A stretch of DNA of 64,000 bases, taken from positions 6,143-70,142 of the forward strand of contig ASKX01000003.1 of the NCBI GenBank assembly GCA_000398025.1, given 5' to 3'. This DNA comes from Candidatus Paceibacter normanii SCGC AAA255-P19. GTDB taxonomy: Bacteria; Patescibacteriota; Minisyncoccia; Minisyncoccales; Paceibacteraceae. The notes below the pieces were generated by a model, which saw only the letters and a program-made list of their open reading frames with translations, searched no databases and was not told the DNA's origin. Positions 21,632 through 63,458 of this stretch are shown in pieces. Position numbers and translations under genes: made by a program. How positions within the stretch are numbered: the stretch's first letter is position 1; every line of letters begins with the position of its first letter.

Positions 21632-21703
21632 GGTGGTCGTAGCTTAATGGCAAAGCTCCTGACTGTGGCTCAGGTGATGGGAGTTCGATTCTCCTCGACC
21701 ACC
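21632..21703 (+). tRNA. tRNA-His(GUG) with encoded G-1
   Basis: G-1 plus acceptor GTGGTCG/CGACCAC and C73. Anticodon loop CTGTGGC. T-loop TTCGATT. Confidence 0.9.
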
Positions 21704-21753
21704 CAAGCTGTAAGCGAAGGGGAAAGAAGAGGTTTATCTCTTCGACCACCCAA
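21703..21753 (+). repeat. R1-like fragment plus a duplicated tRNA-His 3' end
   Basis: CCAAGCTgtaAGCGAAGGGGAAA, then hairpin GAAGAG-gtttat-CTCTTC, then CGACCACCCAA. The last segment repeats tRNA positions 21696..21706. Confidence 0.6.
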
Positions 21754-21784: not shown

Positions 21785-22810
21785 TTACTTTTTTTCTCCG
21801 AGTTTCATTTTGATTATTATTTTCTTGCCGTTTCGTAAAACCTTTAAAAAAATTTCCTCGCCAATTTTGAATTTTTGCAATATATTAGCTAGAGGATTTT
21901 TATCAGTAATCTTTTCTTTCTGACACTCCAAAATAATATCAAACTCTTTCAGGCCAGCTTTGTCGGCTGCCGACCCTTTAACCACCGCCGACTCGCCCAA
22001 GGTCTGCCTCAAAATCAAAGCTCCGTAATCTACCGGCAGCTTATTTTTTTCAGCAACCTGTTTATTGATAAGAATATATCTTACTCCCAAAAACGGCCTT
22101 TTGATCTTTCCGTATTTCTTAATTTCTTCCAAATCTTTCTTGGCCGGATTAATGGGGATAGCGAACCCAATATTTTGAGCTCCCATAACCATAGCCGTAT
22201 TAATTCCAATAGCCTTACCTTCAATGTTTACTAAAGGGCCGCCTGAATTGCCAGGGTTAATGGCCGCGTCCGTCTGAATTAGCCCTCTTAAATGGGCAGC
22301 TTGGGTTGCCAAGCCAGAAAAAGCAGTAATCATCCTGCTCATTCCCGAAACCACGCCAGTACTGACCGTGTCGTGGAATTCTCCCAAGGCATTGCCTACC
22401 GCTACTACGGTTTGACCCAGCTCAATTTTTTCCGAATCGCCTAATTCTAAACAAGGGAATTTTTTTCCTTTGATTTTAAGAATGGCAATATCATTAATCG
22501 GGTCGCGAGATATTACCTTAGCCGGATATTTTTTCTCTGGCTCAAAAAGCACAGTATAGTCTGCTTCCGGGTCGCTGACCACATGAGAGCTGGTTAAAAT
22601 ATAGCCGTCAGAAGAAACAATAAAGCCAGACCCTCCCCCAATTTTTGTTCTCTCCCTTTTTTTGTTAAACTTTGGGACAACAAATTTCTGTCTGCCGAAA
22701 GGGAAAAGATAAAAACCCTCTATTTTGGGTAAATCTTTAGAAATAACCACAGTAATAACTGCCGGGCAGACCTTTTTAGCAATTTCAATAATGGGGGATT
22801 TTTCTGGCAT
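21785..22810 (-). CDS. HtrA/DegP-family serine protease with PDZ domain
   Basis: Catalytic contexts TSSHVV, DIAILKI and GNSGGPLVN. C-terminal PDZ-like region. Confidence 0.85.
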   Translation of the reverse strand: MPEKSPIIEIAKKVCPAVITVVISKDLPKIEGFYLFPFGRQKFVVPKFNKKRERTKIGGGSGFIVSSDGYILTSSHVVSDPEADYTVLFEPEKKYPAKVISRDPINDIAILKIKGKKFPCLELGDSEKIELGQTVVAVGNALGEFHDTVSTGVVSGMSRMITAFSGLATQAAHLRGLIQTDAAINPGNSGGPLVNIEGKAIGINTAMVMGAQNIGFAIPINPAKKDLEEIKKYGKIKRPFLGVRYILINKQVAEKNKLPVDYGALILRQTLGESAVVKGSAADKAGLKEFDIILECQKEKITDKNPLANILQKFKIGEEIFLKVLRNGKKIIIKMKLGEKK

Positions 22811-22834
22811 TTTAATAAATGAAAAATTTATTAA

Positions 22835-22864
22835 AAGGTGAAATGAATCGAAGATTCATTGACC
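22835..22864 (+). repeat. R1 half copy (linker plus hairpin 2)
   Basis: AAGGTGAA-ATGAATC-gaa-GATTCAT-TGACC. Confidence 0.5.
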
Positions 22865-22887
22865 ATACAATTAATTTTATCATAGAC

Positions 22888-24214: not shown

Positions 24215-24575
24215 ATGGAATTCTTTAAAAAAGAAAAAAAAAGAACCCAAGGATTTAAAAGAAGTTTTGGCTCAATTTAAGGGTTTGGAGAAAAATTTGG
24301 AAAAGCTTTCCCAGGACCTAGAAACTCTAAAAAAAGAAAGCCAGTTTTCGGTTCAAAAAATGGGGGTGGTCAGATTTAATCCTTTTTCAGAAATTGGCGG
24401 CGACCAAAGCTTTTCTGCGGCTTTCCTAGATGGAAACGATAACGGATTGGTGATTACCAGCCTTTATACTCGGGAAGGAAATAGGGTTTACGGAAAACCA
24501 ATTAAAAAAGGAGCTTCTGAGCATTCTTTATCCCAAGAAGAAAAAGAAGCAATATCAAGAGCCAAGGGCTCGTAA
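24215..24575 (+). CDS. DUF4446-like protein with an apparent frameshift in an A9 run
   Basis: ATG 24215 gives MEFFKKEKK. Removing one A from 24234..24242 joins it to EPKDLKEVLAQFKG...VVRFNPFSEIGGDQSF...SLYTREGNRVY (ORF 24267..24575). Confidence 0.6.
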
Positions 24576-24690
24576 TTTCCAATTTCCAATTTCCAATTTT
24601 CAATAAATGTCACAATTTCCAAACCGTTTAATTGATAATTGATTCATTGAAAATTCATTGTAAATTGATAATTGTAAATTGATAATTTCA
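24574..24690. repeat. CAATTTY heptamer arrays in opposed orientation (R2)
   Basis: AATTTCC x3 plus AATTTTC at 24574..24601. Reverse-orientation units (ATAATTG, AAAATTC, TAAATTG) at 24631..24690. Contains the 14-mer TTGAAAATTCATTG. Confidence 0.7.
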
Positions 24691-26597: not shown

Positions 26598-26670
26598 GGC
26601 CAGGTAGCCAAGTAGCTAAGGCGTCGGTCTGCAAAACCGATATACACGGGTGCAAATCCCGTCCTGGCCT
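26598..26670 (+). tRNA. tRNA-Cys(GCA) with atypical D/T loops
   Basis: Acceptor GGCCAGG/CCTGGCC, U73, A13:A22 mismatch, anticodon loop CTGCAAA. T-loop reads TGCAAAT and the D-loop AGTAGCTA lacks GG. Confidence 0.8.
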
Positions 26671-26676
26671 CAAAAA

Positions 26677-26727
26677 CCGAGCCCGCTTTGACGGGCGAAG
26701 GTGAAGAAGAAGAGAATCTTCTTCGAC
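26677..26727 (+). repeat. R1 double-hairpin repeat filling the tRNA-Cys/tRNA-Leu spacer
   Basis: CCGA-GCCCG-ctttga-CGGGC-GAAGGTGAA-GAAGAAG-agaat-CTTCTTC-GAC. Confidence 0.75.
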
Positions 26728-26728
26728 T

Positions 26729-26811
26729 GCCCGGGTGGTGGAATGGTAGACACGCAAGACTTAAAATCTTGTAAGCGTAAGCTTGTGCGGGTTCGACTCC
26801 CGCCCCGGGCA
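26729..26811 (+). tRNA. tRNA-Leu(UAA)
   Basis: Acceptor GCCCGGG/CCCGGGC, anticodon loop CTTAAAA, variable arm TAAGCGTAAGCTTGT, T-loop TTCGACT. Confidence 0.9.
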
Positions 26812-29002: not shown

Positions 29003-30892
29003 TTAAACACTTTTTACTTTTACTTTTACTGATCCTTTAGTCTTTGGCAAGGGCTTTTCTTTTGTTGTTTTCTTACCTCCTTTGATCAACTCCTCAAACT
29101 CTTCCCTTTCGATTGTCTCTTTTTCAATTAATCTTTTGGCAATTTTTTCCAGCAAAACCTTTCTTTTCATTAAAATTTTCTTTGCTTTAGTTTCAGCATC
29201 TTTAATAAATTTAGCCACTTCTTTATCAATTTGAGTAGCTATCTTTTCAGAATAGTTTCTCTGTTCAGAAATCTCTTTTCCCAAAAAGATCATTTCTTCT
29301 TTTTCGCCAAAAGAAACTGGACCCAGGGATGACATGCCATATTCTTTAACTAATTTTCTGGCTAATTCTGAAGCTCTTTTAAGGTCGTTGGCTGCTCCCG
29401 TAGTAATTTCGCCAAACTTCAGCTTTTCTGCGCAATAACCGCCCAATAAAGTAGCCATTTCAGCCAAGAATTCTGATTTGGTTCTGATTTTTCTTTCTTC
29501 TTTGGGAAGTTTCAAAGTATAGCCGGCAGCTACCCCTCTAGCCATAATAGAAATTTTCCTTACTGGTTCTGTCTCCATTAAAGAGGTGGAAACCAAAGCA
29601 TGGCCAGCTTCATGGAAAGCCGCAATTTCTTTTTCTTTTTTAGATAAAACATGACTTTTTCTTTCTGGTCCCAATAAAACTTTTTCGATTGATTCCAATA
29701 ATTCTTCTTGGAAAATTTGCTTTTTATTTCTTCTGGCTGCCAAAATAGCAGCTTCATTTACTACGTTAGCTAAGTCCGCCCCGGAAAACCCTGGAGTTCT
29801 CTCGGCCACCTCTCTTAAATTAATATTGAGAGCCAAAGGTTTTCCTCGGCAGTGAATTTTTAAGATCTCTTGCCGGTCATTAATATCTGGTAAATCCAAG
29901 ACTACTCTTCTATCAAACCTGCCCGGCCTTAATAAAGCTGGGTCTAAAACATCGGGCCGATTGGTAGCTGATATCACTATCCGGGTGTCATCTCTCTCAA
30001 AACCATCCATTTCCACTAAAATTTGATTCAAAGTTTGCTCTCTTTCATCGTGTCCCCCGCCAATTCCTGCCCCTCTCAATCGACCGACAGCATCTAGTTC
30101 GTCAATAAAAATTACCGCCCTCCCTGCCTTTTTAGCGGTAGAAAAAAGGTCCCGGACTCTGCTGGCTCCCACCCCGACGAACATCTCGACGAATTCTGAA
30201 CCAGAAATAGAGAAAAAAGGTACCCCGGCCTCAGAGGCGACAGCGCGGGATAAAAGGGTCTTGCCAGTTCCGGGTGGTCCGACTAGCAAGACGCCGCGGG
30301 GAATTCTGGCTCCCATTTGAAGATATTTTTTAGGGTTTCTTAGGAAATCAACTACTTCTTCCAGTTCCTCTTTAGCTTCTTTGAGGCCAGCTACGTCTTT
30401 GAAAGTAATTTTTTCTTTGGGATGGCCTTCGGCCCCAAAAAGGCGAGCTTTAGCCCTGGTAAAGTCAAAGGCCTGAGTGGCTCCGGTTTTGGCTTGGCGG
30501 AAAATCATCCAGAAGAAAAAACCAAAAAATAAAAGCGGCAACAAGATTAACAGAACTGGACCCAGCCAAACCATTGCCCCTCCTTCTTTTTTTGTTTTAA
30601 TTTCTACTTCCTTTAGCTTTTCTTTATCTACTCCGTAATTTATCAAAGACTGGGAGAGAGCCAGCTCCGTTTCTTTGCGAGAGCGGGCTTTAGAATCATC
30701 TTGATAGATAATTTGGAGTTCGTCGCCGGTGACGGTAATCTTTTTAATCTTTCCTTGGTTAACTTCTTCTGCCAACTGAGTAATTGATAATTCCTTCCCT
30801 TTTTCAAAGGGCTGGGAAAATAAGGTAAAAAGCCCGGAGATGACCAGAAAAATCAACAAAATAAAAACAAAATTTTTAACTAAATTCTTCAT
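29003..30892 (-). CDS. ftsH: ATP-dependent zinc metalloprotease FtsH
   Basis: Two TM segments. Walker [11 protein letters not shown], Walker [31 protein letters not shown], zinc site HEAGHAL. Confidence 0.95.
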
Positions 30893-35256: not shown

Positions 35257-36333
35257 TTATTGTACTAGTTCGAGACTCATTCGGTGTTCTTTGGGTTCAA
35301 TGGAGAGAATTCGAAATTTATATTCTTTGCCAATCGCCAAGGCCTCTTCCATTTTCGATTTTGTCCCGAATTCAGAAATATGACAAAGCCCTTGGATTTT
35401 AGAACTAATTTTGATGAAAGCACCAAAAGGATTAAATTTGGTAGCTTTTCCTTTGACCTTGTCTCCTTTTTTGTATTCTTTTTCAATGTCTGACCAAGGA
35501 TCTTTTTTCAGGGCTTTCAAAGAAAGAGAAACTTTATCGCCAGAAATTTCAATAATTTTCGTTTGCACTTTATCTCCCATTTTGACAATTTCAGCCGGGT
35601 CCTCTACCAATTGCCAATCTAATTCTGAGATATGAATTAGTCCTTCTAGCCATTCTACTTCTTCTCCCAAAGAATTTTTTAAAGGGAAGCGGACAAAGGC
35701 GCCAAAATCAGTAACTCCGGTGATTTCTCCTTCAACCACATCTCCTACTTTGCACCCTTCTAAAAGTTTTTTTATTTTCTCGGTAGCTTTGGCTTTTTCT
35801 GATAAAATAAGCTTTTCTTCCTTAGGAGACAAATCAAAAATTTTAACATCTAACTCCTCGCCAATAAATTTTTGAAGCTCTTTTAAAATTTTAGCTTGAT
35901 CCCCTTTTTCCACTCGGGGATAGTGGGAACTTTCCAATTGGGAAACTGGCAAGAAGGCCGGAATGTCAAGAACTTCAGCCAGCAGCCCGCCCTTGTTGGC
36001 GCCGGAAATTTTTACTGTTATGGTTTCTCCACTTTCTTTCTTTTGGGCTAGCTTAGCCCAGGTTATTTCTTTGGAAGCTCCTTTAACTGACAGCTCGACA
36101 TAACCTTCTTCGTTCTCCAGGTCTACTACTTTGGCAAAAATAGTATCGCCGGCTTTAACGTTTTTCAGTTGGGTTTTGGCTTCAGCAAATTCTCTTCCGT
36201 AAATTATGCCCGCCCCCACCTGACCTAAATCCAAAAAAATGGAGGACTTACCCTTACCAATAACTTTTCCTTCAATAATTTCTCCCACCTTCAAAGGCTT
36301 TAACAAATTGTTTTTATCTAGCAATTCTTTCAT
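35257..36333 (-). CDS. rpsA: 30S ribosomal protein S1 (four S1 domains)
   Basis: Repeated G.V..V...G.F..L motifs: GEIIEGKVIG, GDTIFAKVV, GDVVEGEITGVTDFGAFV, GDKVKGKATKFNPFGAFI. Confidence 0.85.
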   Translation of the reverse strand: MKELLDKNNLLKPLKVGEIIEGKVIGKGKSSIFLDLGQVGAGIIYGREFAEAKTQLKNVKAGDTIFAKVVDLENEEGYVELSVKGASKEITWAKLAQKKESGETITVKISGANKGGLLAEVLDIPAFLPVSQLESSHYPRVEKGDQAKILKELQKFIGEELDVKIFDLSPKEEKLILSEKAKATEKIKKLLEGCKVGDVVEGEITGVTDFGAFVRFPLKNSLGEEVEWLEGLIHISELDWQLVEDPAEIVKMGDKVQTKIIEISGDKVSLSLKALKKDPWSDIEKEYKKGDKVKGKATKFNPFGAFIKISSKIQGLCHISEFGTKSKMEEALAIGKEYKFRILSIEPKEHRMSLELVQ

Positions 36334-36336
36334 ATA

Positions 36337-36389
36337 TCGAGCCCGCCTTAGCGGGCGAAGATGAAGATGAGAACGAAGTTCTCATCGCC
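36337..36389 (+). repeat. R1 double-hairpin repeat (full copy) upstream of rpsA
   Basis: TCGA-GCCCGC-ctta-GCGGGC-GAAGATGAA-GATGAGAAC-gaa-GTTCTCATC-GCC. Confidence 0.8.
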
Positions 36390-36412
36390 TCCCTTGCAGT
36401 TTATAATAATCC

Positions 36413-36441
36413 TTGAATTTTTGCAATACTAATGATAAAAT
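36413..36441 (+). promoter_or_regulatory. Sigma70-like promoter of the MBL-hydrolase gene
   Basis: TTGAAT, 17 nt, TAAAAT, ending 9 nt before ATG 36451. The leader would be very short or absent. Confidence 0.45.
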
Positions 36442-36450
36442 TTTAGTAAT

Positions 36451-37152
36451 ATGCAGATTGTTTGGCATGGCCAATCCTATTTTCAAATCGAAGCTCGCCA
36501 TAATAAAAGCGAGCATACTTTAATTGTCATTGATCCTTTTTCTGAGGAAATTGGTCTGCGAGTCCCTAAACTTCAGGCCGATGTTTTATTAATTACCCAT
36601 CAGCATTATGACCATAACAATGTAAAAACGGTTTCAGGCACCCCCTTTTTAATTGATGGTCCCGGTGAGTACGAAATCAAAAAAGTTTTCATTCAAGGTA
36701 TTCCCGCCTGGCACGATCAAAAGCAGGGCAAAGAGCGAGGCTCCAACACCATTTATACCATTGAGGCCGAGGAGATGAAAATTTGTCACTTGGGAGATTT
36801 AGGCCAAAAAGAACTAACCGGAGAACAATTAGAGAAAATCGGCGATGTAGATATTTTAATGATTCCAGTCGGGGGCGTCTATACCATTTCAGCTAAAGAA
36901 GCCTTAGAAATAATGTCTCAACTTGAACCCAGAATAACCATCCCCATGCACTACCAACTTCCCAAATTGAAGATAAAATTAGACACCCGAGCGATAGCGA
37001 AGGGTGGAAAAGAAGATTTATCTTCTTTGAACGGCGTAGATAAATTTTTAAAGAGTTTAGGCATTAAATCAATGGAGCCCCTAAGCAAGCTTTCAATAAA
37101 AAGCAAAGATATTTCTCCAGAAGAGGCTAAAATAATTCTTTTAAGACCGTAA
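36451..37152 (+). CDS. MBL-fold metal-dependent hydrolase (UPF0173-like) carrying an in-frame R1 insert
   Basis: LITHQHYDHN motif, ICHLGDLG, and IPMHY. Confidence 0.75.
   Translation: MQIVWHGQSYFQIEARHNKSEHTLIVIDPFSEEIGLRVPKLQADVLLITHQHYDHNNVKTVSGTPFLIDGPGEYEIKKVFIQGIPAWHDQKQGKERGSNTIYTIEAEEMKICHLGDLGQKELTGEQLEKIGDVDILMIPVGGVYTISAKEALEIMSQLEPRITIPMHYQLPKLKIKLDTRAIAKGGKEDLSSLNGVDKFLKSLGIKSMEPLSKLSIKSKDISPEEAKIILLRP
36985..37029 (+). repeat. R1 45-nt unit in frame inside the hydrolase gene
   Basis: ACCCGAGCGATAGCGAAGGGTGGAAAAGAAGATTTATCTTCTTTG translates as TRAIAKGGKEDLSSL. Confidence 0.75.
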
Positions 37153-37157
37153 TCCCC

Positions 37158-37445
37158 ATGTCTAAAATCCAAGATTTGCCAGAATCTACCCGGAAAATAA
37201 TTTTTTGGATAGCTATAATTATTGTTGGTTTAGGATTGCTCTCTTGGTGGGCTCAAACCGCTCAGGAAAGAATGAGAAGCGTTCGAGGAGAAGAGATGAA
37301 GGAGGGCTTAGGAATTCCTTTTTTAGAAGAGCAGCTAAAAGAGATGCCCAAAATTGAAATGCCAGAGATTGATGAGGAAACCTTAAAAAAAATTGAACAA
37401 TTATTTAAAGAAGCAGAGCAGCAGGCAGAGAAACCAACCGAGTAA
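37158..37445 (+). CDS. Small membrane-anchored hypothetical protein
   Basis: Single TM (IIFWIAIIIVGLGLLSWW) and an acidic C-terminal tail. Confidence 0.5.
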   Translation: MSKIQDLPESTRKIIFWIAIIIVGLGLLSWWAQTAQERMRSVRGEEMKEGLGIPFLEEQLKEMPKIEMPEIDEETLKKIEQLFKEAEQQAEKPTE

Positions 37446-37449
37446 ATAT

Positions 37450-37500
37450 GCTCAATGAATCTTTGATTCATTTCGATCTTCAATAAATTTTCAATTTATC
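37450..37500. repeat. ATGAATC hairpin plus CAATTTY units upstream of gyrA
   Basis: GCTCAATGAATC-ttt-GATTCATTTCGA followed by CTTCAATAAATTTTCAATTTATC. Confidence 0.6.
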
Positions 37501-37503
37501 TCG

Positions 37504-39978
37504 ATGCCTAAAGAAAATCAAAAAATAAATAGAGAAACTGAAATAGGCTATATTAAACCCCGAGCCATTACCGAGGAAATGAAGGACTCGTACATTGACT
37601 ACGCTATGTCAGTGATTGTTTCTCGAGCTCTGCCTGATGTCAGAGATGGTTTAAAACCAGTCCATCGCCGGATTTTATACACGATGGGCGAGATGGGATT
37701 GGGGCACACAGCGAAATTTAGAAAGTCAGCAACAGTGGTGGGCGAAACAATGGGGAAACTGCATCCACATGGTGATGCAGCAATTTACGATGCCTTGGCT
37801 CGAATGGCTCAAGATTTCTCTTTAAGATATCCTTTAATTCAGGGTCAAGGCAATTTCGGTAGCATCGACGGAGATCCCCCGAGTGCGATGAGGTATAGCG
37901 AGGCGAAGCTTTCAGAAATCGGTGAGGAAACGCTCAAAGACATTGAGAAAAACACGGTTGATTTCGCTGACAATTACGACGGAACCCGTAAAGAGCCCAC
38001 TGTTTTACCTTCACCCCTTCCTCAATTGTTGCTTAATGGTTCTTTAGGAATTGCCGTAGGTATGGCTACCAATATTCCCACCCATAACCTTTCAGAAGTT
38101 TGCGAAGCCACCGACTATTTAATTGACCATCCCAAAGCCGATACTGAAGATCTCTTTCAGTTTGTCAAAGGACCCGATTTTCCTACTGGCGGCCAAATTT
38201 TTAATCAAAAAGAAATTATCGCTGCTTATTCTCAGGGTAAAGGACCAATTTTAACTCGAGGGAAAACGGAAGTTATAGAAAGGGAAAAGAGCGGCCGACT
38301 TCAGATTGTTATTACTGAAATTCCTTTCCAAGTTCAAAAGTCTTCTTTAGTTGAGCAATTTGCTCATTTAGTTCAAGAAAAAAAGATAGAAGGGATTAAA
38401 GATATTAGAGACGAATCTGACAAAGAAGGACTGAGAATTGTCATCGAGCTACAAAAAGATGCTTTTCCTCAGAAGATTTTAAACCGTCTTTATAAGTTTA
38501 CCGACCTCCAAAAAAGTTTTCATTTGAATATGTTAGCTTTGGTGGAAGGGATTCAGCCTCGAGTTTTAAACTTAGCCGATTTATTGAACTACTTTATTGT
38601 TCACCGTAAAGAAGTAGTTACCCGGAGAACAGAATATGAATTAGAAAAAGCCAAAGGAAGAGCTCATATTTTAGAAGGTCTACATAAATGCCTAGCTGAT
38701 ATAGATGCTGTAATAAAAACCATCAAAAACTCAGCCAATCGAGAGGAAGCCCAAAAGAATTTGATGAAGCGCTTTCGCTTAACTCAAATTCAAGCTAACG
38801 CCATTTTAGAAACCAAACTTTCAGCCCTGGCTAAGCTGGAAAGAAAGAAGATTGAAGACGAATTAAAAGAGCAGCGTTCCAGAATCAAAGAATTAACAGC
38901 CATTTTGAAGAGCCCTCAAAAAATCAAACAAGTTATTAAAAAAGAATTAAAAGAGCTAAAAGAAAGATTTGGTGACGAAAGAAGAACTAAAGTAGTTGTT
39001 CAAAAAGTTGGTGAGATAGCCGAAGAAGACCTAATTCCCTCCGAGGAAACAATCATTACTCTTACTCAAGGAGGTTACATTAAAAGAATTAACCCTTCTA
39101 TTTATCGTCTCCAAAAAAGAGGAGGCAAAGGAATTGCCGGCATGAAAACAGTGGGCGACGATGTGGTTGAGCATTTCTTGACCGCCAACACTCACGACAA
39201 CCTTTTATTCTTTACTGATTCAGGGAAAGTTTTTCGCACCCTAGTCTATGAAATTCCCGAAGGCGTCAGGGTGGCTAAAGGCCGGGGGTTGTTGAACTTT
39301 TTAGAAATTTCTCCTGAGGATAAAGTTCTGTGTATTTTGGCTTTGGGTAAGGAAGATGAAGTCTTGGGCACAAAATATTTAGTCATGGTCACCAAAAATG
39401 GTATAACCAAGAAAACTAGCTTGGAAGAGTTCGAGAATGTTCGCCGTTCAGGTTTAATAGCCATTAATCTAAGAAAAGGCGATGCCTTAAGAAAAGTAAG
39501 AAAGAGCGCTGACGAGGACGATATAATTTTAGCAACCAAGAAGGGCCAATCCATCCGCTTTAAAGAAAAAGAAATAAGGCCAATGGGTAGGCCAGCAGCT
39601 GGAATTAAAGGAATTAGATTAAAGAAAGGGGATGAGGTGATTGGCATGGATCCAATTCAAGCTAAAGACAAAAAGGAAAAACAGTATTTATTGGTCGTTA
39701 CAGAAAATGGCTATGGCAAAAGGACGGATTTGACAGAGTATCGACCCCAAGGAAAGGGAGGCTCAGGAATAAAAACAGCCCAGGTAACTCCCAAAACCGG
39801 CAACCTAATTACCTCTCGAGTTTTAACTGACGAGGAAGATTTAATTGTTATTTCTCAAAGAGGCCAAGTGATTAGAACAAAAATTTCTTCCATTCCCAAG
39901 TTGAGCCGGGCCACCCAAGGAGTAAGAATAATGGTCTTGGGAGAAGGAGATAAAGTGGCTTCCACTACCTGCCTATAA
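37504..39978 (+). CDS. gyrA: DNA gyrase subunit A
   Basis: [12 protein letters not shown], active-site region AMRYSEAKL, and C-terminal beta-pinwheel repeats. Confidence 0.95.
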
Positions 39979-41735: not shown

Positions 41736-42425
41736 TTATATTTTTACCTTAATTCTTCGCCTCTTTTCTCTTAAAATCTTGGGTATTCTAATGGTTAGAA
41801 TGCCTTCTTTCATCGTGGCTTCAGCTCGGTCGGGATCCACTTCTACTGGCAAGATTATTTCTCGAGAAAAGGAACCCCAATAACATTCTTGAGCAAAATA
41901 GTCACCTTCTTCTTCATAGGGTCTTTCTCGGCTGCCTTTGATAGTGATGATATCTTTTTCCAAAGCAATATCTAAATCTTCTGGCTTGACTCCGGCAATG
42001 GCTGATTGAACAACCAAATCAGTATCAGTTTGATAAACATCAATAGCTAATTCTCCTTCTGTCTCAAACCATTTTTCTTTAGTTTCCGCAGCTTTAGTAA
42101 AAGAGGGCTCCTCTTTAATTTCTTCTTTCGGCTCAGGTTCAAGTTCCGGTTCTGGCTCTGTTAAGTCTTCTTTTTGGGTAATTATTACCTTCTCCTCTTT
42201 TGGTTTTGTCAAAGAGGATAAATCCTCTTTTCCACCCTTCGCTGACACTCGGGTAAGCGATGAACTTCGTTCATCTTCACCCTTCACTGACGCTCGGGTA
42301 ACCGAAGTCTTCTGGCGAGAGATAGTTCCCCGCCTTCTTTTTGGTTTTTCTTCTCTTGCTTCTTCTACTTCTCCTTCTTCAATCCCCATTCCCTTTTTTA
42401 ATTTTTCAAAAAAAGAATCAGCCAT
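41736..42425 (-). CDS. Hsp20/alpha-crystallin family protein with extended N-terminal region containing two R1 units
   Basis: C-terminal ACD: LAIDVYQTDTDLVVQSAIAGVKPEDLDI...GILTIRIPK. The N-terminal ~130 aa are low-complexity. Confidence 0.8.
   Translation of the reverse strand: MADSFFEKLKKGMGIEEGEVEEAREEKPKRRRGTISRQKTSVTRASVKGEDERSSSLTRVSAKGGKEDLSSLTKPKEEKVIITQKEDLTEPEPELEPEPKEEIKEEPSFTKAAETKEKWFETEGELAIDVYQTDTDLVVQSAIAGVKPEDLDIALEKDIITIKGSRERPYEEEGDYFAQECYWGSFSREIILPVEVDPDRAEATMKEGILTIRIPKILREKRRRIKVKI
42210..42299 (-). repeat. Two tandem 45-nt R1 units in frame inside hsp20
   Basis: On the minus strand, unit 1 (42299..42255) translates as TRASVKGEDERSSSL. Unit 2 (42254..42210) translates as TRVSAKGGKEDLSSL. 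Confidence 0.8.
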
Positions 42426-49375: not shown

Positions 49376-50101
49376 TTATCCGCGAGCTACTGCTAAACCA
49401 ATAATTTCTTTGGAGCCGGCTTTTTTAAGGACTCGGGCGCACTCGGTCATGGTAGCGCCGCTGGTATAAACGTCGTTAATTAAAAGAATCTTTTTTCCTC
49501 TTACTGTCTCCGGGTTTTGGCAGAGAAACGCCCCTTTAATGTTCTCTTCCCTTTCCTTATCTGAAAGCTCTACCTGAGGTAGAGTATTTTTTATTTTTAC
49601 CAAAACATTATTCAACAGGGGGATTCCCCAAAATTGGGCTAAATTGTCACCAATCTCTTCTGCCTGGTTAAACCCTCGCCACCTTAATCTCTTTTTTCCC
49701 AGAGGCACAGGAACTAAAAAGAAATCAGTAAAGCTTGGCGGCTTCTCGATCAATTGAAAGTGTTCTATTATTAAAGAAGCTAAAGGTTCAGCTAGTTCCT
49801 TAATAAAGGGTTCGTATTTAAACTTTTGGATGAGTTTTCTAGTTAAAGGCTTTTGATAGTCGGCAGCAAAATATAAATCAGCCAGTTCAGCCGTGGAATA
49901 TGGTCGAAGAGGATAAATCCTCTTCTCCTCCCTTCGCTGTCGCTCGGGATTTTGATGAAAACCGGAAATCTCCAAGCATCCTTGGCAATCGTCGCAAAGA
50001 TAGCTACCTTCTTTTTGACAGCCAAGGCATTGTTTCGGAAAAAAGAGATCAAAAAGATAATTTTTAATTCCTTTCCCCATCGAAATAAATTGAAAATTCA
50101 T
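49376..50101 (-). CDS. comF: ComF-family phosphoribosyltransferase-like competence protein with in-frame R1 insert
   Basis: N-terminal zinc ribbon CLGC...CDDC. C-terminal PRT motif ILLINDVYTSGATM. Alternative start at M8 (50080). Confidence 0.8.
   Translation of the reverse strand: MNFQFISMGKGIKNYLFDLFFPKQCLGCQKEGSYLCDDCQGCLEISGFHQNPERQRREEKRIYPLRPYSTAELADLYFAADYQKPLTRKLIQKFKYEPFIKELAEPLASLIIEHFQLIEKPPSFTDFFLVPVPLGKKRLRWRGFNQAEEIGDNLAQFWGIPLLNNVLVKIKNTLPQVELSDKEREENIKGAFLCQNPETVRGKKILLINDVYTSGATMTECARVLKKAGSKEIIGLAVARG
49903..49950 (-). repeat. R1 unit inside comF, read in a different frame
   Basis: Minus strand reads ATCCCGAGCGACAGCGAAGGGAGGAGAAGAGGATTTATCCTCTTCGACC. It translates as PERQRREEKRIYPLRP. 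Confidence 0.75.
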
Positions 50102-50135
50102 TGAAGATTGAAATGAATTGAAAATTCATTGAATA
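50083..50135. repeat. R2-type AT-rich repeat/hairpin cluster in the comF/pilM2 divergent region
   Basis: The 14-mer TTGAAAATTCATTG occurs twice here and once at 24647..24660. Overlapping palindromes AATTCATT/AATGAATT. Confidence 0.65.
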
Positions 50136-50156
50136 TAGTATTTTTAATTGTATAAT
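50129..50156 (+). promoter_or_regulatory. Sigma70-like promoter of T4P locus 2
   Basis: TTGAAT, 16 nt, TATAAT. The SD AAAGGAG and ATG 50175 follow. Confidence 0.55.
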
Positions 50157-52350: not shown

Positions 52351-52632
52351 GTGGCTGTCACTTTTCTCGAAAAAAGAAAAAGATTAAGATTTTTAATGCC
52401 GGTTTTGGCTGGAATAGTTTTAATTACAGCCGTTATTATTTGGCGAGGTTTTTTTGTCAAAGAAGAGCCCTTTCCTACTGAAGAACCTTCACGGCTAACC
52501 CACGAGGTAGAAATAAATTTCCAGGTCTTAGAAAGCACTAAACTGGAGAATTTACAAGTTTTTGAAAAAACCCCTCCCTTGGAAGAGGAAGCCGGTCGAG
52601 AAAACCCCTTCTTACCCTCTCAAAAAAAATGA
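52351..52632 (+). CDS. Small membrane protein, fourth member of the pilMNO operon (second copy)
   Basis: GTG start, one TM, C-terminal GRENPFLP. Compare YPDPFR in 21198..21497. Confidence 0.5.
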   Translation: MAVTFLEKRKRLRFLMPVLAGIVLITAVIIWRGFFVKEEPFPTEEPSRLTHEVEINFQVLESTKLENLQVFEKTPPLEEEAGRENPFLPSQKK

Positions 52633-54350
52633 GCTTAATTCAACAACTAGTCAAAAAAGGAGTTTTAGAAAAAGAGAAAGCCACCTCTTTAGAATTTGAG
52701 ATCAAAGAGAGTGGCAAGAAAGAAGAAGAAGTGATTTTGGAAAAGGGAATTACCAGCGAAGAGTCTTTGTTTAATCTAAAAAGTGAAAACTTAAAAATAC
52801 CCCTGAAAGAGGTAGCCGCTCAAGACATTTCTTTAGAAACTTTAGAGTTGATCCCTGAAGAAACCGCCAAGCATTATCAAATGATCCCCCTAAAGAAAAA
52901 AGAAAATCTTTTAGAGGTAGGAATGATTTATCCTGAAGATCTCAAAACCCAGGAAGCTCTGAAATTCTTAGCTCGCCGCGAGAGGTTTAGTTTCCGAGTT
53001 TTTCTAATTACCCCTACCACTTTTAACAACCTCTTAAAACAATACCGTACCTTAAGAAGAGAAGTTGGCCAGGCCTTAGAAGAGCTGGAGACCGAATTGA
53101 AGACTGAAAAGATTCGGCTTCCCAGAACAGCCGCTGAGTTTGAAAGGCTGGCTGAAGAAGCTCCGATCACCAAAATTGTGGCTGTAGTTTTAAGGCACGC
53201 CGTTGAAAGTAAGGCCTCGGATATCCATATTGAGCCCACTCGGAAGAAGTTAAGAGTACGTTTTAGATTATTAGGATTTCTTCATTCTTCCATCCTTTTG
53301 CCTTTAAGGATTCACCCCGCCGTAGTGGCTAGAGTTAAAATCCTTTCCAATTTAAAGATTGACGAAACTAGAATTCCCCAAGACGGGAGGTTTTCTACTA
53401 AAATAGATAATAAAGACATTGATTTTCGAGTCTCTACTTTCCCTACTACCTTAGGAGAGAAGGCAGCAATTAGAGTTTTAGATCCTTCGATGGGAATGAA
53501 AGAATTTGGAGAATTGGGGTTGGAAGGTAGAAATTATGAGACAACCAACCGAGCCACTAAAAAACCTTACGGCCTTATCTTGACCTGCGGGCCAACTGGC
53601 TGTGGCAAAACCACCACTCTTTATGCTTTCTTGACTCGCTTAAACAAAGAAGAAAAAAACATTGTTACCTTAGAAGATCCGGTGGAGTATTTTATTGAGG
53701 GAGTAAATCAATCCCAAATTAGGCCGGAAATCGGCTACGACTTCCCGATTGGCTTGCGGCACGTTCTTCGTCAAGACCCCGACATTATTATGGTGGGTGA
53801 AATCCGAGACGAAGAAACGGCTTCCTTAGTTATCCATGCAGCCTTAACCGGCCACTTAGTTTTGTCCACCCTTCATACCTCCAATGCTTTAGGAGCTATT
53901 CCCCGACTGATTGATTTGGGAATTCAACCTTATTTGATTTCTCCCACTTTGAATTGTATTGTTTCCCAAAGGTTGGTTAGAAGACTGTGTGATGATTGTA
54001 AAAAGAAGGTTAGGCCTAAAAAAGAGATTAAGGATTTAATCCTTAAAGAGGTAGAAAATCTTCCTCCCCAAGTTAAAAAAACAGTTAAAGTCCCCAAACC
54101 TTTAATGATTTGGGAGGCCCAGGGCTGTAAAAAATGTAACAATGAAGGTTTCAGCGGTCGGGTTGCTCTTTTCGAAGTTTTAGAAATGTCTGATAACTTA
54201 GAAGATATAATTTTAGAAATGCCTACTGTAGAAAAAATCGCTGGAGAGGCGAAGCTGCAAGGTATGGTTAATATGAAACAGGACGGCATCCTCAAGGTTT
54301 TAAGCGGAACAACGACTATTGAGGAAATTTTAAGAACAACCGAAGAATGA
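52629..54350 (+). CDS. pilB: Type IV pilus assembly ATPase PilB/GspE family (second copy)
   Basis: Walker A GPTGCGKTTT, LRQDPDIIMVGEIRD, and tetracysteine CDDC...CKKC. Confidence 0.9.
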   Translation: MSLIQQLVKKGVLEKEKATSLEFEIKESGKKEEEVILEKGITSEESLFNLKSENLKIPLKEVAAQDISLETLELIPEETAKHYQMIPLKKKENLLEVGMIYPEDLKTQEALKFLARRERFSFRVFLITPTTFNNLLKQYRTLRREVGQALEELETELKTEKIRLPRTAAEFERLAEEAPITKIVAVVLRHAVESKASDIHIEPTRKKLRVRFRLLGFLHSSILLPLRIHPAVVARVKILSNLKIDETRIPQDGRFSTKIDNKDIDFRVSTFPTTLGEKAAIRVLDPSMGMKEFGELGLEGRNYETTNRATKKPYGLILTCGPTGCGKTTTLYAFLTRLNKEEKNIVTLEDPVEYFIEGVNQSQIRPEIGYDFPIGLRHVLRQDPDIIMVGEIRDEETASLVIHAALTGHLVLSTLHTSNALGAIPRLIDLGIQPYLISPTLNCIVSQRLVRRLCDDCKKKVRPKKEIKDLILKEVENLPPQVKKTVKVPKPLMIWEAQGCKKCNNEGFSGRVALFEVLEMSDNLEDIILEMPTVEKIAGEAKLQGMVNMKQDGILKVLSGTTTIEEILRTTEE

Positions 54351-54402
54351 TGAGAACCTTGTCCTCATCATTACCTTCGCTTTTATAAATAAAAGCTCGG
54401 TG
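54340..54402 (-). repeat. R1 repeat (AT-rich hairpin 1 variant) between pilB2 and the receiver gene
   Basis: Minus strand reads CACCGAGCT-tttatttataaa-AGCGAAGGTAAT-GATGAG-gacaaggtt-CTCATC-ATTCTTCGG. Confidence 0.65.
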
Positions 54403-54423
54403 AATAATAAAAATATGGTGAAG

Positions 54424-54796: not shown

Positions 54797-55867
54797 ATGA
54801 ACAATTATCAGAAACAACTAAAAGAATTGCTGTCGATTACTGTCCAAGAGCAATCCTCGGATTTACATTTTTCAATCGGTCACCCGCCGGTTTTACGTTT
54901 ATCAGGCAGATTGATTCCTTTAATGAAAAGAAAAAACCTCTCGCCAGAAGACCTAAAAGGTTTAGCTGCAGCTTTAATGGCAGATGACCAAAAAGCCAGA
55001 TTTGCCGCCCAAAAAGAAGTAGATTTTTCCTATAATTTCACTGAAAAAGGAGCTCGCTTCCGGGTAAATATTTTTCTTCAAAGCGGAGAAGTTTCTTGTG
55101 CTCTTCGTTTAATTCCAGCCAAAATCCGAACTGTTGAAGAGTTAAATCTTCCGCCGGTTTTGCATGAGTTCACCAGATCCTCTCAAGGGTTTGTTTTAAT
55201 TACCGGGCCTTCCTCTCAAGGAAAATCTACTACTTTAGCCGCCCTTGTCGACGAAGTCAATCATACTCGGACCGACCACATTATCACTATTGAAGATCCT
55301 ATTGAATATGTTTTTACTGACGACCGGGCCATCATTGACCAGAGAGAGGTTTATCAAGATACTCTTTCTTTCTCTCGGGCTCTGCGTTCTACTTTCCGCC
55401 AAGACCCCGACGTAATTATGGTGGGTGAAATGCGCGACCCTGAAACCATCGCCACCGCTATTACAGCTGCTGAAACCGGTCATTTAGTTTTTGCTACTCT
55501 TCATACTAATTCCGCTGCCCAAACCATTCACCGAGTAGTTGATAGTTTTCCTTCTTCCCAGCAAGACCAAATCCGAGCTCAATTGTCGGGTTCTCTTTTG
55601 GGAGTGGTTTCCCAACGACTCATCCCTAGAATTAAAGGCGGCTTGATTCCAGCCTGCGAGGTAATGATTTCCAGCCCCGCTGTAGCTAATCTAATCCGAG
55701 AGAACAAAATTCATGAGCTTCCCTTAGTAATTGAAACTTCAGCTGAAAGAGGAATGATCTCTTTGAACCGAGCTCTGGCTAATTTAGTAAAAAGAAAAGA
55801 AATTTCCCTAGAAAACGCCCTAACTTATTCCTTGAATCCAGCCGAGCTAAAGATGCTCATCCGCTAA
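54797..55867 (+). CDS. pilT: Twitching-motility retraction ATPase PilT
   Basis: 356 aa. Walker A GPSSQGKSTT, FRQDPDVIMVGEMRD, and GHLVFATLHT. Confidence 0.9.
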   Translation: MNNYQKQLKELLSITVQEQSSDLHFSIGHPPVLRLSGRLIPLMKRKNLSPEDLKGLAAALMADDQKARFAAQKEVDFSYNFTEKGARFRVNIFLQSGEVSCALRLIPAKIRTVEELNLPPVLHEFTRSSQGFVLITGPSSQGKSTTLAALVDEVNHTRTDHIITIEDPIEYVFTDDRAIIDQREVYQDTLSFSRALRSTFRQDPDVIMVGEMRDPETIATAITAAETGHLVFATLHTNSAAQTIHRVVDSFPSSQQDQIRAQLSGSLLGVVSQRLIPRIKGGLIPACEVMISSPAVANLIRENKIHELPLVIETSAERGMISLNRALANLVKRKEISLENALTYSLNPAELKMLIR

Positions 55868-57165: not shown

Positions 57166-57200
57166 TTGCTTTTTTATTTTGATATATTAGAATAAATTAA

Positions 57201-57692
57201 ATGAAAAGAGGTTTCACTTTAGTTGAGCACGAACGCTTGAAAAGCGGAGGGCGAAACGAGGGGTTTACCCTCGTTGAGCTACTGGTAGTGATTACCATTA
57301 TTGGAATCTTATCCACTATGGTTTTGGTTTCTCTGGGCGGAGCCAGAGCTAAGGCCAGAGATGCTAAAAGAGAGTCAGATATTAGGCAGATTGTTTTAGC
57401 TATGGAATTAGATTACTCAGACGATGAGAAGTATTCTCAATATACTCCTGACGAATGGGGAACAGTCAGAAAAATTTCCAAAGCTACCGGAAACTATTTA
57501 AATCCTGTTCCTATAGACCCAAAAGGCGCAGCTTACAGCTGGATAGATAATATTTCTGGTACTACCGGTTGCGATAATCAGAGCTACTGTCTTTTTGCCG
57601 AATTGGAAGCTGAAGTTGGCTATTTTTTTGGCGGCTCCAAAAAAGGAACCAGAAAATTAGAGGAGGCGCCAACAGGTTGTCCTTGTTGGTAA
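57201..57692 (+). CDS. Type IV pilin with duplicated GFTLVE leader segment
   Basis: MKRGFTLVE-HERLKSGGRNE-GFTLVELLVVITIIGILSTMVLV. C-terminal Cys pairs. In-frame TTG 57237 is an alternative start. Confidence 0.8.
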   Translation: MKRGFTLVEHERLKSGGRNEGFTLVELLVVITIIGILSTMVLVSLGGARAKARDAKRESDIRQIVLAMELDYSDDEKYSQYTPDEWGTVRKISKATGNYLNPVPIDPKGAAYSWIDNISGTTGCDNQSYCLFAELEAEVGYFFGGSKKGTRKLEEAPTGCPCW

Positions 57693-57739
57693 AAACTTTT
57701 ATAAAGAAGGTCGAGAAATAATAATCAACTATTACTAAT

Positions 57740-58183
57740 ATGAAAAAGAAAAAGGGATTTACCTTAATTGAATTATTGGTGGTCATTGCTGTCATTGGTA
57801 TGCTGGCCTCCATTGTTTTGGTTCAGTTGGGGCCGGTCAGAGCCAAAGCCAGAGATGCTAAACGTCGTCAGGATTTCGCTCAGATAGCTCAAGCTATGGC
57901 TTTGTGCTATATAGATAAGGATTGCGGAGCCGGAGAAGACAAACACATTAAGCAGGCCGACATGCCAAGCTCAATTGATACCGATAACACTCCAGTCTTG
58001 TTAGGTTCAGTCCCCACTAAAACCGGTGACACAACTTATGCTTGGTGGACTAACGTTGGTGATGACCAAACCTATTGCATCTCTGTTGATTTGGAAACGG
58101 ATGGTTATCTTTGTGCCTCCCGAGCCGGAGTGGTGGAAGGCAGCACTGTGCCTACGGCAATAAAAACCGGTTGTTGCAAATAA
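57740..58183 (+). CDS. Type IV pilin
   Basis: [28 protein letters not shown] is a class III signal. C-terminal Cys residues. Confidence 0.85.
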   Translation: MKKKKGFTLIELLVVIAVIGMLASIVLVQLGPVRAKARDAKRRQDFAQIAQAMALCYIDKDCGAGEDKHIKQADMPSSIDTDNTPVLLGSVPTKTGDTTYAWWTNVGDDQTYCISVDLETDGYLCASRAGVVEGSTVPTAIKTGCCK

Positions 58184-58248
58184 GTTTTTCAAAAATAACA
58201 AAGGTCGAACCTAACTTGTTAATGATTATTAATCGGTAATTTGTTATC

Positions 58249-58764
58249 ATGATTCAACTATTCACTAGAAAACACCGCGGTTTTACTTTAATTGAATTAT
58301 TGGTAGTTATCGCTATTATTGGAATTTTAGCCGGGATTGTTTTGGTATCTTTGGGCGGCGCCAGAAGTAAAGCTAGAGATGCCGCCAGGCAATCTGATAT
58401 GCGCCAGGTGGTAACTGCCCAAGAAATGGTTTACGGCGACGATGAAGCTTATGAAACAGTAGCTGGCAGCACAACTGGAATTCCAGCCATTGCCAATAGC
58501 ACTGGTACAGAATACTTCCCAGCTACCAACGATCCCAAGTCAGGGTCTAATTATATCTGGCTGGATAATACCGTAGATTACGATGATACCGGTACCGCTT
58601 GCGTGATAGGGGAATATTTCTGTGGTTATGCTACCCTGGAAAATAAACCTGCCGAATGTACTGGTACTGCTTATTACTACGCCACCTCAGAGCAAGGAAG
58701 TAGGGTGGTTTGTGATACTGCCCCGGCCTACGATGCAGTTGCTAATGATTGCGCTTGCTACTAA
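58249..58764 (+). CDS. Type IV pilin
   Basis: [27 protein letters not shown] is a class III signal. C-terminal Cys residues. Confidence 0.85.
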
Positions 58765-58780
58765 GAGAGTTTAGGGAGTC

Positions 58781-58808
58781 AAAAAACCGGCGGAAGCCGG
58801 TTTTTTCT
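58781..58808 (+). terminator. Rho-independent terminator after the pilin genes
   Basis: AAAAA-ACCGGC-ggaa-GCCGGT-TTTTTC. Confidence 0.75.
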
Positions 58809-58841
58809 TTGAATTAAAAATGTTAAAATCTAAGAATAATC

Positions 58842-59610: not shown

Positions 59611-60116
59611 ATAAAAAAGGATTTACTTTAGTAGAGTTATTAGTGGTGGTGGGAATTATTGTTATTTTATCATCCATTATTTTGTCAGACTATCAGACGG
59701 GCAGAAAGCAGCTTTCCCTTCAGCGCTCGGTTCATATGCTATCCCAAGATTTAAGAAGAGCAGAAGAGATGAGCATGTCAGCCACGGCTTATAATTGTCC
59801 AACCGGCTACAAAATGAAGGGTTACGGGATAAACCTAACTGCCGGGCAAGATTTTTATTGGTTAAAAGCTAGGTGCGAAAACACAACTACGCCCGGAGAT
59901 TATGACGACCAAACTGTTGGCGGTAAAATAGATCTAGAGGAGGGAGTACAGATATTATCAGCCACTTCTTCTTATGTCTTTTTTTATCCGCCAGACCCCG
60001 AAGTAGTTTTTGAAGATAGCGACCCAATGGAGGTAACCCTTTGTTTGAAAGCCGACGCGACTCAGGCAGGAACCGTTCAAATAAATAAAGCTGGTTTAAT
60101 CAATATCAATGAATAA
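59607..60116 (+). CDS. Prepilin-type minor pilin/pseudopilin
   Basis: MNKKGFTLVELLVVVGIIVILSSIIL. ATGA overlap with pilD. Confidence 0.8.
   Translation: MNKKGFTLVELLVVVGIIVILSSIILSDYQTGRKQLSLQRSVHMLSQDLRRAEEMSMSATAYNCPTGYKMKGYGINLTAGQDFYWLKARCENTTTPGDYDDQTVGGKIDLEEGVQILSATSSYVFFYPPDPEVVFEDSDPMEVTLCLKADATQAGTVQINKAGLININE

Positions 60117-61122: not shown

Positions 61123-63458
<2,336 letters not shown>

Follow-up and report, generated by a model that had tools for sequence, protein, structure and literature searches.

A short palindromic repeat lies in frame within a gene for a metallo-β-lactamase (MBL)-fold hydrolase of Candidatus Paceibacter normanii SCGC AAA255-P19, a member of the Patescibacteria, or Candidate Phyla Radiation (CPR), whose genomes are very small and gene-dense, with few recognized mobile elements. 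The gene was examined as part of a 64,000-nt stretch of contig ASKX01000003.1 (positions 6,143 to 70,142), referred to here in its entirety as the window; all coordinates are those of the window, and bit scores for the repeat refer to R1, a covariance model built from an alignment of unit copies. The features at the locus are as follows.

36451–37152, plus strand: gene for an MBL-fold metal-dependent hydrolase of 233 aa (217 aa without the insert)
36985–37032, plus strand: repeat unit in the MBL gene, 48 nt, 16 codons, TRAIAKGGKEDLSSLN, in frame, R1 67.2 bits
36984–37006, plus strand: hairpin 1 of this copy, with a CACCC/GGGTG stem, a GA/GAA internal loop, a GC/GC top stem and the loop GATA
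37009–37028, plus strand: hairpin 2 of this copy, with an 8-bp stem, AAAGAAGA/TCTTCTTT, and the loop TTTA

The host protein matches Pfam Lactamase_B_3 (PF13483) with E = 3e-47 (161 bits against a cut-off of 24), and its best Foldseek match is 1vjn_A (1vjn/TM0207; E = 9e-19). A first-pass annotation of the window, made by a model from the sequence, had called it a UPF0173-type hydrolase; the MBL fold stands, whereas assignment to the UPF0173 equivalog does not, the protein reaching 75.6 bits with NCBIfam NF001911 against a curated cut-off of 144 bits. By these scores it would appear to be a relative of UPF0173 that falls outside the NF001911 equivalog. The same annotation had described a 15-codon peptide beginning in frame at codon 179, and both the position of the 45 plus-strand bases at 36985–37029 within the open reading frame (ORF) 36451–37152 (36451 + 178 × 3 = 36985) and their translation, TRAIAKGGKEDLSSL, bear this out. 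That the segment is an insertion also holds, although its extent must be revised, since comparison with homologues delimits a block of 48 nt (16 codons, 36985–37032) rather than 45 nt and 15 codons. The insert thus spans residues 179–194 and, as had been stated, follows the last conserved histidine motif, IPMHY, at residues 164–168. Its junctions carry an ambiguity of 2–3 nt (AC/GAC) at both ends, and the junction peptides encoded by the gene are ...IKLDTRAIAK and GGKEDLSSLNGVDK.

Alignment with homologues had been proposed as a check on this insertion. The search returned 6975 proteins, from which the best 120 were inspected for length and 27 were aligned (alignment A1). Most of these best 120 are 217 aa long, and the 16-residue segment is absent from the ~100 closest homologues. 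The consensus over the insertion site reads IPKLK[LIV]KLDGLDKFLK (n = 27), and in the window protein TRAIAKGGKEDLSSLN is placed between KLD and GVDKFLK. In the closest relative (P0002, locus L138) the empty site can be read directly as AAATTAGAC followed by GGCGTAGAT, with near-identical flanks, and the window DNA holds exactly 48 additional bases at this junction.

An AlphaFold2 model, the second check that had been proposed, has a mean predicted local distance difference test (pLDDT) score of 78 and a predicted template modelling (pTM) score of 0.81, with the remaining fold intact. Residues 170–191, located between the last core strand (162–166, within IPMHY) and the C-terminal helix at 194–202, have pLDDT values below 50, and for this reason the insert is placed in a predicted flexible loop past the last metal-ligand motif. 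The extra peptide is predicted to be compatible with the fold as a surface loop, and it probably serves no function in the enzyme, being neutral or mildly deleterious.

The same loop carries other insertions in other organisms. Three homologues (P0045, locus L144; P0020, locus L145; and P0028, locus L146) possess GC-rich palindromic inserts at KLKI^KLDG, three codons 5′ of the window site, one of them a 63-nt hairpin (CACCCCGTTAAATCCCGCGAAGCGGG...AACGGGGTA), and both P0020 and P0036 have an additional second insert behind IP. Model R1 gave no match to the palindromic inserts of loci L144, L145 and L146. From these alignments, several palindromic families appear to share one permissive MBL loop, and since other MBL homologues bear such unrelated inserts there, in-frame palindrome insertion seems to act in these genomes as a general way of altering protein length.

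Structure of the unit and its copies in other genes

Each unit consists of TAC, the segment CCGAGCG-NN-AGCGAAGGG that forms hairpin 1, TGGA, a variable hairpin 2, and GAC, and measures 45 or 48 nt. Hairpin 1 generally has an outer ACCC/GGGT stem and a 2-bp top stem on either side of a conserved GA/GAA internal loop, with the flanks CCGAGC...GCGAAGG conserved beneath a variable top. Hairpin 2 is mostly either 17 nt (GATGAAC-GAA-GTTCATC) or 20 nt (such as GAAGAGGA-TTTA-TCCTCTTC) in length, giving rise to the 45- and 48-nt units, respectively. Terminal inverted repeats are absent: the unit begins with TAC and ends with GAC, and its two palindromes are both internal and unlike each other.

Folded as DNA, hairpin 1 of the MBL copy reaches −10.8 kcal/mol (z = −4.2), and the window copies folded as single-stranded DNA have z values of −2.7 to −5.2, with the exception of a divergent copy beside tRNA-His (−1.6). 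Columns 13–33 of alignment A3, which correspond to hairpin 1, are near-invariant and 98.7% paired. Across 38 copies, 98.8% of cells fall in standard pairs, as opposed to 23–49% when the partners are slid, and seven pairs have changed on both sides, five of them in the 8-pair stem of hairpin 2, a number equalled in none of 500 shuffles. Hairpin 2 therefore covaries, in that its sequence is variable and its pairing conserved. Within a unit, the loop of hairpin 1 (GCG-NN-AGC) and the top of hairpin 2 (GATGAA-GCGNNAGC-TTCATC) often share their variable dinucleotide, as in loci L018, L023, L052, L100, L108 and others, which suggests that sequence is copied between the two hairpins inside one element. 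A scan of the window with Rfam 15 at gathering score reported only tRNAs, and a permissive scan (E ≤ 1) of 36300–37600 gave nothing meaningful. A reading of the GA/GAA loop as a K-turn was rejected on inspection, the strand and bulge geometry being off consensus.

Two further genes of the window contain the unit.

41736–42425, minus strand: Hsp20/alpha-crystallin gene (Pfam PF00011, residues 131–227)
42207–42254, minus strand: Hsp20 unit, second of a tandem pair, 48 nt, TRVSAKGGKEDLSSL, R1 71.6 bits
42255–42299, minus strand: Hsp20 unit, the other of the tandem pair, 45 nt, TRASVKGEDERSSSL, R1 28.5 bits
49376–50101, minus strand: ComF-family phosphoribosyltransferase gene with an N-terminal zinc ribbon (NCBIfam TIGR00201, Pfam DZR_2)
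49902–49949, minus strand: unit in the ComF-like gene, 48 nt, sense frame 2, PERQRREEKRIYPLRP, R1 74.2 bits

Both Hsp20 units lie within the hypervariable N-terminal linker and are absent from 21 Hsp20 homologues (alignment A5); the 45-nt unit has the shorter hairpin 2, GATGAAC-GAA-GTTCATC. The reported 13-of-15 identity between Hsp20 TRVSAKGGKEDLSSL and MBL TRAIAKGGKEDLSSL was reproduced, and it extends to the DNA, where the copies are 89% identical across 46 nt (inverted repeat I5). They differ in hairpin 2 by A→G together with T→C, a compensatory pair in which both changes are synonymous. Several Hsp20 homologues (P0263, P0273, P0280 and P0284) have other short inserts in the same linker (A5 columns 40–70 and 100–140), and these inserts, ISSRAPLQNQPASRE, VSFPASLRGEPAGQE and SSPSLATVREVDEGRDE, resemble the translated copies of repeats from related families or from other ones.

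Relative to the MBL and Hsp20 copies, the reading frame of the ComF copy is shifted by one base, and it accordingly encodes PERQRREEKRIYPLRP. At the insertion point, where ComF homologues read ISGFHQK-YST, the window protein is longer by a net 16 residues (alignment A2). The same site has been occupied elsewhere in different ways: homologue P0137 has one unit in sense frame 1 (TRATAKGGDE...), P0126 has two units in frame 3, and P0143 has four tandem antisense units (EGEENRFSSFPFAVAR). By these comparisons, the MBL, Hsp20 and ComF copies are all DNA-level insertions relative to their homologues. In a single case (locus L140, 2200–2586), the ComF gene with the four tandem antisense units is followed directly downstream by a small gene for an HNH endonuclease (128 aa, weak match to Pfam HNH).

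Distribution, reading frames and insertion sites

The unit is not confined to the window. A scan of public genomes, one per species, with an exact 21-base motif located hairpin-bearing units in ten low-GC loci of eight metagenome-assembled genomes, comprising six Saccharibacteria, Parcubacteria CG1_02_39_15 and one unclassified genome. Seven high-GC matches to the motif (in Hyphomonadaceae, Rhizobium, Solirubrobacterales and others) have no hairpin and were treated as chance. In metagenomes, at least 120 stretches with the motif were found, mainly in groundwater and lake samples. Moreover, lake-metagenome contigs with unrelated flanks stack on 36986–37030 to a depth of 130–300, as compared with 2–40 elsewhere in the MBL gene, and the repeat is thereby delimited independently.

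A census of loci retrieved by the exact 21-base motif yielded 168 non-redundant copies (>200 in the fetched loci), and 108 of these (64%) are intragenic, that is, inside an open frame 100 codons or longer that extends for 15 or more codons to either side. Among the intragenic copies, 62 are antisense, 40 are in sense frame 1, five in frame 2 and one in frame 3; by manual count, ~56 of the antisense copies encode V[DE]E..SSPPFANAR and ~6 the hydrophobic ..HPSLRLG. Consequently, 96 of the 108 use one of the two frames whose peptides are small or hydrophilic, TRALAKGGDE..SS (frame 1) and VDE..SSPPFANAR. In common alleles the remaining frames hold TAG or TGA, and the open hydrophobic antisense frame is seldom used. 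Such a skew would be expected if selection acted on a translated product.

Unit length points in the same direction. Tandem periods are 48 nt in 15 cases and 45 nt in six, and the 47-nt arrays that were checked, L062 among them, fall outside open frames. A heuristic for the length of solitary copies was noisy, returning 46 or 49 nt inside ORFs, and the statement that unit length is a multiple of three is based on tandem periods and empty sites only. When non-coding copies are deleted in silico, long ORFs are not restored, apart from two or three cases that are probably mis-delimited hairpins. Because intragenic copies are always open, a multiple of three in length, and biased in frame use, we infer with good support that the unit is translated, with disordered loops or linkers tolerating it, and its length probably reflects selection for coding compatibility.

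The DNA upstream of the unit is also nonrandom. Among 110 solitary or first units, T occupies position −8 in 106, C position −7 in 77 and C position −10 in 64, with TAC at −3 to −1. The resulting consensus, TTCWTC-RAW-TAC, is similar to the unit's own 3′ end, ...TTCATC-GAC(-TAC), and TTAC or TAC is conserved directly 5′ of the unit, while TAC occurs 3′ of only ~40% of solitary units. At the ComF site the motif is native sequence, TTTCATCAAAA, which encodes FHQK and is conserved in insert-free homologues; the inserts there are preceded by CATCAAAA in the window, CATCAAA in L142 and TCATCTCAT in L141, and the antisense array of L140 has its own upstream flank, ATCGTCAAGCTC, which is the native LDD read backwards. 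These flanks point to a weak target preference, with new copies probably placed just 3′ of TC-RAW. If the preference is real, the recurrent insertions at the ComF site and the head-to-tail arrays are explained by each unit recreating a TC-RAW target.

Origin, movement and precedents of the unit

The segment at 36985–37032 very probably represents one copy of a dispersed repeat that is short, non-coding and non-autonomous, propagates as DNA in the genomes of CPR bacteria, and survives within genes where it happens to be in frame. By this account, the repeat would insert as DNA 3′ of a TC-RAW motif resembling its own 3′ end (TC-GAC), copies landing in frame would survive within genes, and they would persist chiefly in two benign frames as extra loop or linker residues. 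Candidates for the mover are a trans-acting enzyme of the IS200/IS605 or REP-associated tyrosine transposase (RAYT) kind that acts on single-stranded DNA hairpins, or template switching from one hairpin repeat to another in the course of replication.

Several observations weigh against this account. The census is biased by the retrieval of loci with an exact 21-base motif. The upstream motif amounts to only ~4–5 bits, the MBL site, AAATTAGAC, fits TC-RAW only partly, and the motif could be a 5′ extension of the element instead of a target preference. No clear target-site duplication was seen at the MBL or ComF junctions, the latter of which have no ambiguity, and together with the lack of terminal inverted repeats this makes for a poor fit to a classical MITE (miniature inverted-repeat transposable element). 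A scan of ~950 kb of element-bearing loci for ORFs with an HUH motif and a downstream Tyr returned none, using a crude regular expression with no profile search and no complete genomes. The strong conservation of the first module and its internal loop across phylum-level lineages would also fit a host-selected protein-binding site. Finally, the read sets that hold the MBL-insert sequence are DNA metagenomes only, with a low share of words, 0.12–0.26.

The first-pass annotation had argued that the MBL and Hsp20 proteins share their peptide through insertion of a repeat rather than through protein homology, and the absence of the segment from homologues, the empty site and the differently framed ComF copy all support this. 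Homology, or a shuffled functional linear motif, could account for 13 identical residues of 15 and for the two copies being in the same frame, and yet it is barely credible and was rejected: the same DNA yields unrelated peptides in ComF genes, where it is read in other frames and antisense, 62 of the 108 intragenic copies are antisense and encode an unrelated peptide, the segment is missing from homologues of the MBL, Hsp20 and ComF proteins alike, and intergenic copies exist. It is very improbable that the 48 nt are spliced from the mRNA or bypassed by the ribosome, leaving the protein unaffected. The element is indeed structured, mobile and GC-richer than its surroundings, much like the byp elements of mitochondria. 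However, every intragenic copy found is open in the host frame, with stop-bearing frames avoided and benign peptides favored, in-gene tandem periods are 45 or 48 nt, and removal of non-coding copies does not rebuild genes. We know of no bacterial mechanism for excising 45–48 nt from mRNA. A role as a DNA uptake sequence was also rejected, as DNA uptake sequences accumulate through substitution and the copies are insertions relative to homologues. Somewhat more is to be said for a unit that is chiefly host-selected, with the GA/GAA loop as a putative site for a CPR protein on RNA or single-stranded DNA (acting, for example, in RNA processing or stability, or as a replication or repair factor) and the intragenic copies as a by-product. 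The near-invariant CCGAGC...GCGAAGG flanks between stems that vary and covary, the sequence conservation between Saccharibacteria and Parcubacteria, the several window copies that adjoin tRNA genes, and the failure of the crude scan to find a transposase would all suit such a site. Nonetheless, this reading is improbable as a whole, given that orientation in genes is mixed (46 sense and 62 antisense) and antisense copies would not retain an RNA motif, copies turn up in scattered loops of housekeeping proteins that are unrelated to one another, arrays of two to four identical units in tandem resemble self-propagation, and no Rfam family matches. A host function of the loop as a putative protein-binding site is in any case compatible with mobility.

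As to the mover of a DNA-level repeat, it is possible, though doubtful, that the unit is a minimal substrate of a trans-acting HUH/Y1 transposase for single-stranded DNA (IS200/IS605 TnpA or RAYT), which would leave no target duplication, in the manner of repetitive extragenic palindromic sequences (REPs) or palindrome-associated transposable elements (PATEs). Each end of the unit has one hairpin, often with a common top, GCGNNAGC; TTAC or TAC is conserved 5′ and is joined by the TC-RAW motif; the ComF and MBL junctions are free of duplication; and hairpin 2 can have a GAA triloop. GAA triloops closed by C-G form stable DNA mini-hairpins. The antisense junctions, GTAGTC beside a palindrome, are furthermore reminiscent of GTAG-tagged REPs (PMC3733652). 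On the other hand, the ~950 kb of loci contain no HUH/Y1-like ORF by the crude test, gene orientation is nearly balanced where lagging-strand-dependent elements would be expected to be biased, REPs are mostly extragenic whereas the unit is mostly intragenic, and TAC seldom follows solitary units. In the window, GC skew follows gene strand only. Template switching, in which a nascent ...TC-RAW 3′ end would mispair with the 3′ arm of a distant hairpin 2, copy one unit and return, strikes us as rather unlikely. It would explain the likeness of the target motif to the unit's 3′ end, the insertion of exactly one unit, the frequent tandem arrays, the lack of a dedicated enzyme in the crude scan, and the dinucleotide match between the two hairpins, which is expected from templated correction inside an element. 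Against it, the upstream flank matches the unit's own hairpin-2 allele no better than other alleles (4.09 matches vs 3.93 ± 0.10, not significant), the homology is only 5–8 nt, an ectopic donor must be close, and sequence conservation across phyla is left unexplained.

A more ambitious form of the mobile-repeat interpretation can be proposed, which we consider to be about evenly balanced when taken in its entirety. It holds that these units form a CPR-wide family of 45/48-nt double-hairpin mobile elements specialized for life in coding genes, with a length divisible by three, two benign frames, a target resembling their own 3′ end, arrays, and repeated use of permissive loops; that they are a major source of lineage-specific loop insertions in CPR proteins; and that they are moved by an enzyme yet to be identified or by the replication machinery.

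The closest known behavior, by analogy, is that of the Rickettsia palindromic elements (RPEs), palindromic repeats found in frame in many unrelated genes, where they encode fold-compatible peptides (PMC10969869). RPEs are considered non-coding selfish elements, also occur between genes and have no known transposase (PMC10969869). They measure ~100–150 bp and are restricted to Rickettsia. Like them, the CPR unit forms hairpins and is found in frame in unrelated genes as well as intergenically. Unlike them, it is 45–48 nt in length, modular, arranged in head-to-tail arrays, and read in several frames and both orientations; it occurs in Saccharibacteria, Parcubacteria and other CPR lineages, and is set apart from RPE-1 to RPE-10 by description. 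The CPR unit is at least three times shorter than RPEs, and the intragenic REP and MITE precedents differ from it likewise in build.

REPs are imperfect palindromes of 20–40 bp, some of them inside genes, and carry a GTAG tag (PMC3733652). The conserved unpaired tag beside a variable stem (GTAG/CGTC in REPs) has a possible counterpart in the GTAGTC antisense junctions of the CPR unit, although its hairpin 2 is 17–20 nt and the GTAG-like tag lies 2 nt off the stem and is not consistent. REPs are mainly extragenic and often form inverted pairs, whereas the CPR unit is 64% intragenic, is arranged head to tail and has two different hairpins; in contrast to REP/RAYT systems, no RAYT was found near it in a crude motif scan of ~950 kb. 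Among MITEs, QMITE1 and QMITE2 of Coxiella overlap with ORFs and in some cases contribute in-frame residues (PMC5896051), and in-frame fusions have been described for other bacterial MITEs, including intragenic ERIC, BOX and Anabaena elements (PMC5896051; PMC10969869). The CPR unit resembles MITEs in its many copies and its lack of coding capacity for a transposase, but the elements named are 150–400 bp in length, have terminal inverted repeats and direct-repeat target duplications, and are mostly intergenic, whereas the unit lies below the usual MITE size and is mostly intragenic.

The PATEs of the IS200/IS605 group are similar to the unit in having subterminal hairpins at both ends, and they insert 3′ of a short specific motif with no duplication, as the unit may do; IS608, for instance, inserts 3′ of TTAC. 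The unit is nevertheless far shorter than known left-end plus right-end pairs, and has no evident gene-strand bias and no TnpA that the crude scan of ~950 kb could find. The byp elements of yeast mitochondria, together with T4 gene 60, are GC-rich, hairpin-forming mobile inserts of 27–55 nt in coding genes. These are skipped by ribosomes and free of frame, however, whereas the CPR copies are open, a multiple of three in length, and biased in frame use. A search of published full text for palindromic, MITE-like or in-frame repeats of CPR bacteria, and for the consensus DNA and peptides, found no description of the unit, which leaves its absence from the literature unproven. The CPR unit is very probably a selfish palindromic repeat invading coding sequence, and its scope extends well beyond the MBL gene.

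Colonization of coding sequence shows how selfish DNA persists where non-coding space is minimal, and the unit provides a concrete source for short, lineage-specific insertions in CPR proteins. Such insertions pose difficulties for homology searches, gene calling, alignments and structure prediction; for annotation purposes, the peptide common to the MBL hydrolase and Hsp20 is neither a domain nor a sign of kinship. The core, CCGAGCG..AGCGAAGGG, is a compact marker that could serve to flag CPR contigs and to follow horizontal exchange among their lineages, and the conserved internal-loop hairpin and target motif make the mobilizing activity testable.

Other members of the family and further repeats in the window

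The 22-nt 5′ module, ACCCGAGCGWYAGCGAAGGGTG, has four sites in the window at three or fewer mismatches and the 27-nt 3′ part has two, with none expected in either case (100 shuffles for the module). Model R1 detects four canonical and seven variant copies. The variants have a long hairpin 1 top stem, either GC- or AT-rich, and retain the CCGAGC...GCGAAGG flanks; all seven are intergenic or at gene ends, and several adjoin tRNA genes.

21689–21751, plus strand: divergent member abutting the 3′ end of tRNA-His, R1 35.6 bits
22874–22943, plus strand: intergenic member upstream of tRNA-Arg, R1 27.4 bits, z = −4.8
26664–26732, plus strand: member with a long hairpin 1, intergenic between tRNA-Cys and tRNA-Leu, R1 38.3 bits
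30883–30956, plus strand: member with an AT-rich hairpin 1 top stem, running from the start codon of the minus-strand gene 29003–30892, R1 40.3 bits
35191–35261, plus strand: member with a long GC-rich hairpin 1 (GCCCGCC...GGCGGGC) between two minus-strand genes, R1 51.7 bits, z = −5.2
36324–36394, plus strand: intergenic member, between the divergent S1 and MBL genes, with a long hairpin 1, R1 32 bits, z = −5.0
54341–54413, minus strand: weak member at the 3′ end of gene 52629–54350, its hairpin 1 AT-rich (ACCGAGC-TTTTAT..AAAAGC-GAAGGT), R1 19 bits

Metagenome contigs also pile up on the copy at 36324–36394. The copy at tRNA-His has the 12-mer TCGACCACCCAA as a direct repeat on both sides, which reflects either a true target duplication or chance agreement through TCGAC. 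Its 5′ end, CACCCAAG, mimics a tRNA acceptor end, and the tRNA-His is left intact for this reason.

Pairs of AT-rich hairpins (ATGAATTGAAAATTCAT ... ATGAATCTTTGATTCAT) occupy intergenic spacers at 37446–37523, 50057–50138, 11298–11369 and 22799–22868, with R1 scores of 17–22 bits. Their stems are similar to hairpin 2 of the coding repeat (GATGAA...TTCATC), and lake-metagenome contigs pile up on one of them as well (37448–37500). These pairs may be relatives of the repeat family that lack hairpin 1, or terminators. Low-complexity AT-rich repeats of AATTTTCAATTTCCAATTT-like units are found in both orientations in intergenic DNA at 24573–24687, 59243–59301 and 61959–61989. Within the ORF at 2014–3723 (569 aa), a 9-nt-periodic internal repeat at 2489–3039, made up of 13 overlapping copies of a 116-nt family, suggests a low-complexity repetitive protein segment. 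Finally, at least five small paralogous genes at 57200–60660 (repeat families D2, D3 and D9) have a common 5′ segment that would encode a KGFTL[IV]ELLVV-type prepilin N-terminus, and three paralogous ATPase genes have conserved blocks at 12466–12961, 53323–53818 and 55382–55446; by sequence resemblance, the prepilin-type and ATPase paralogues point to a possible type IV pilus or competence cluster beside ComF.

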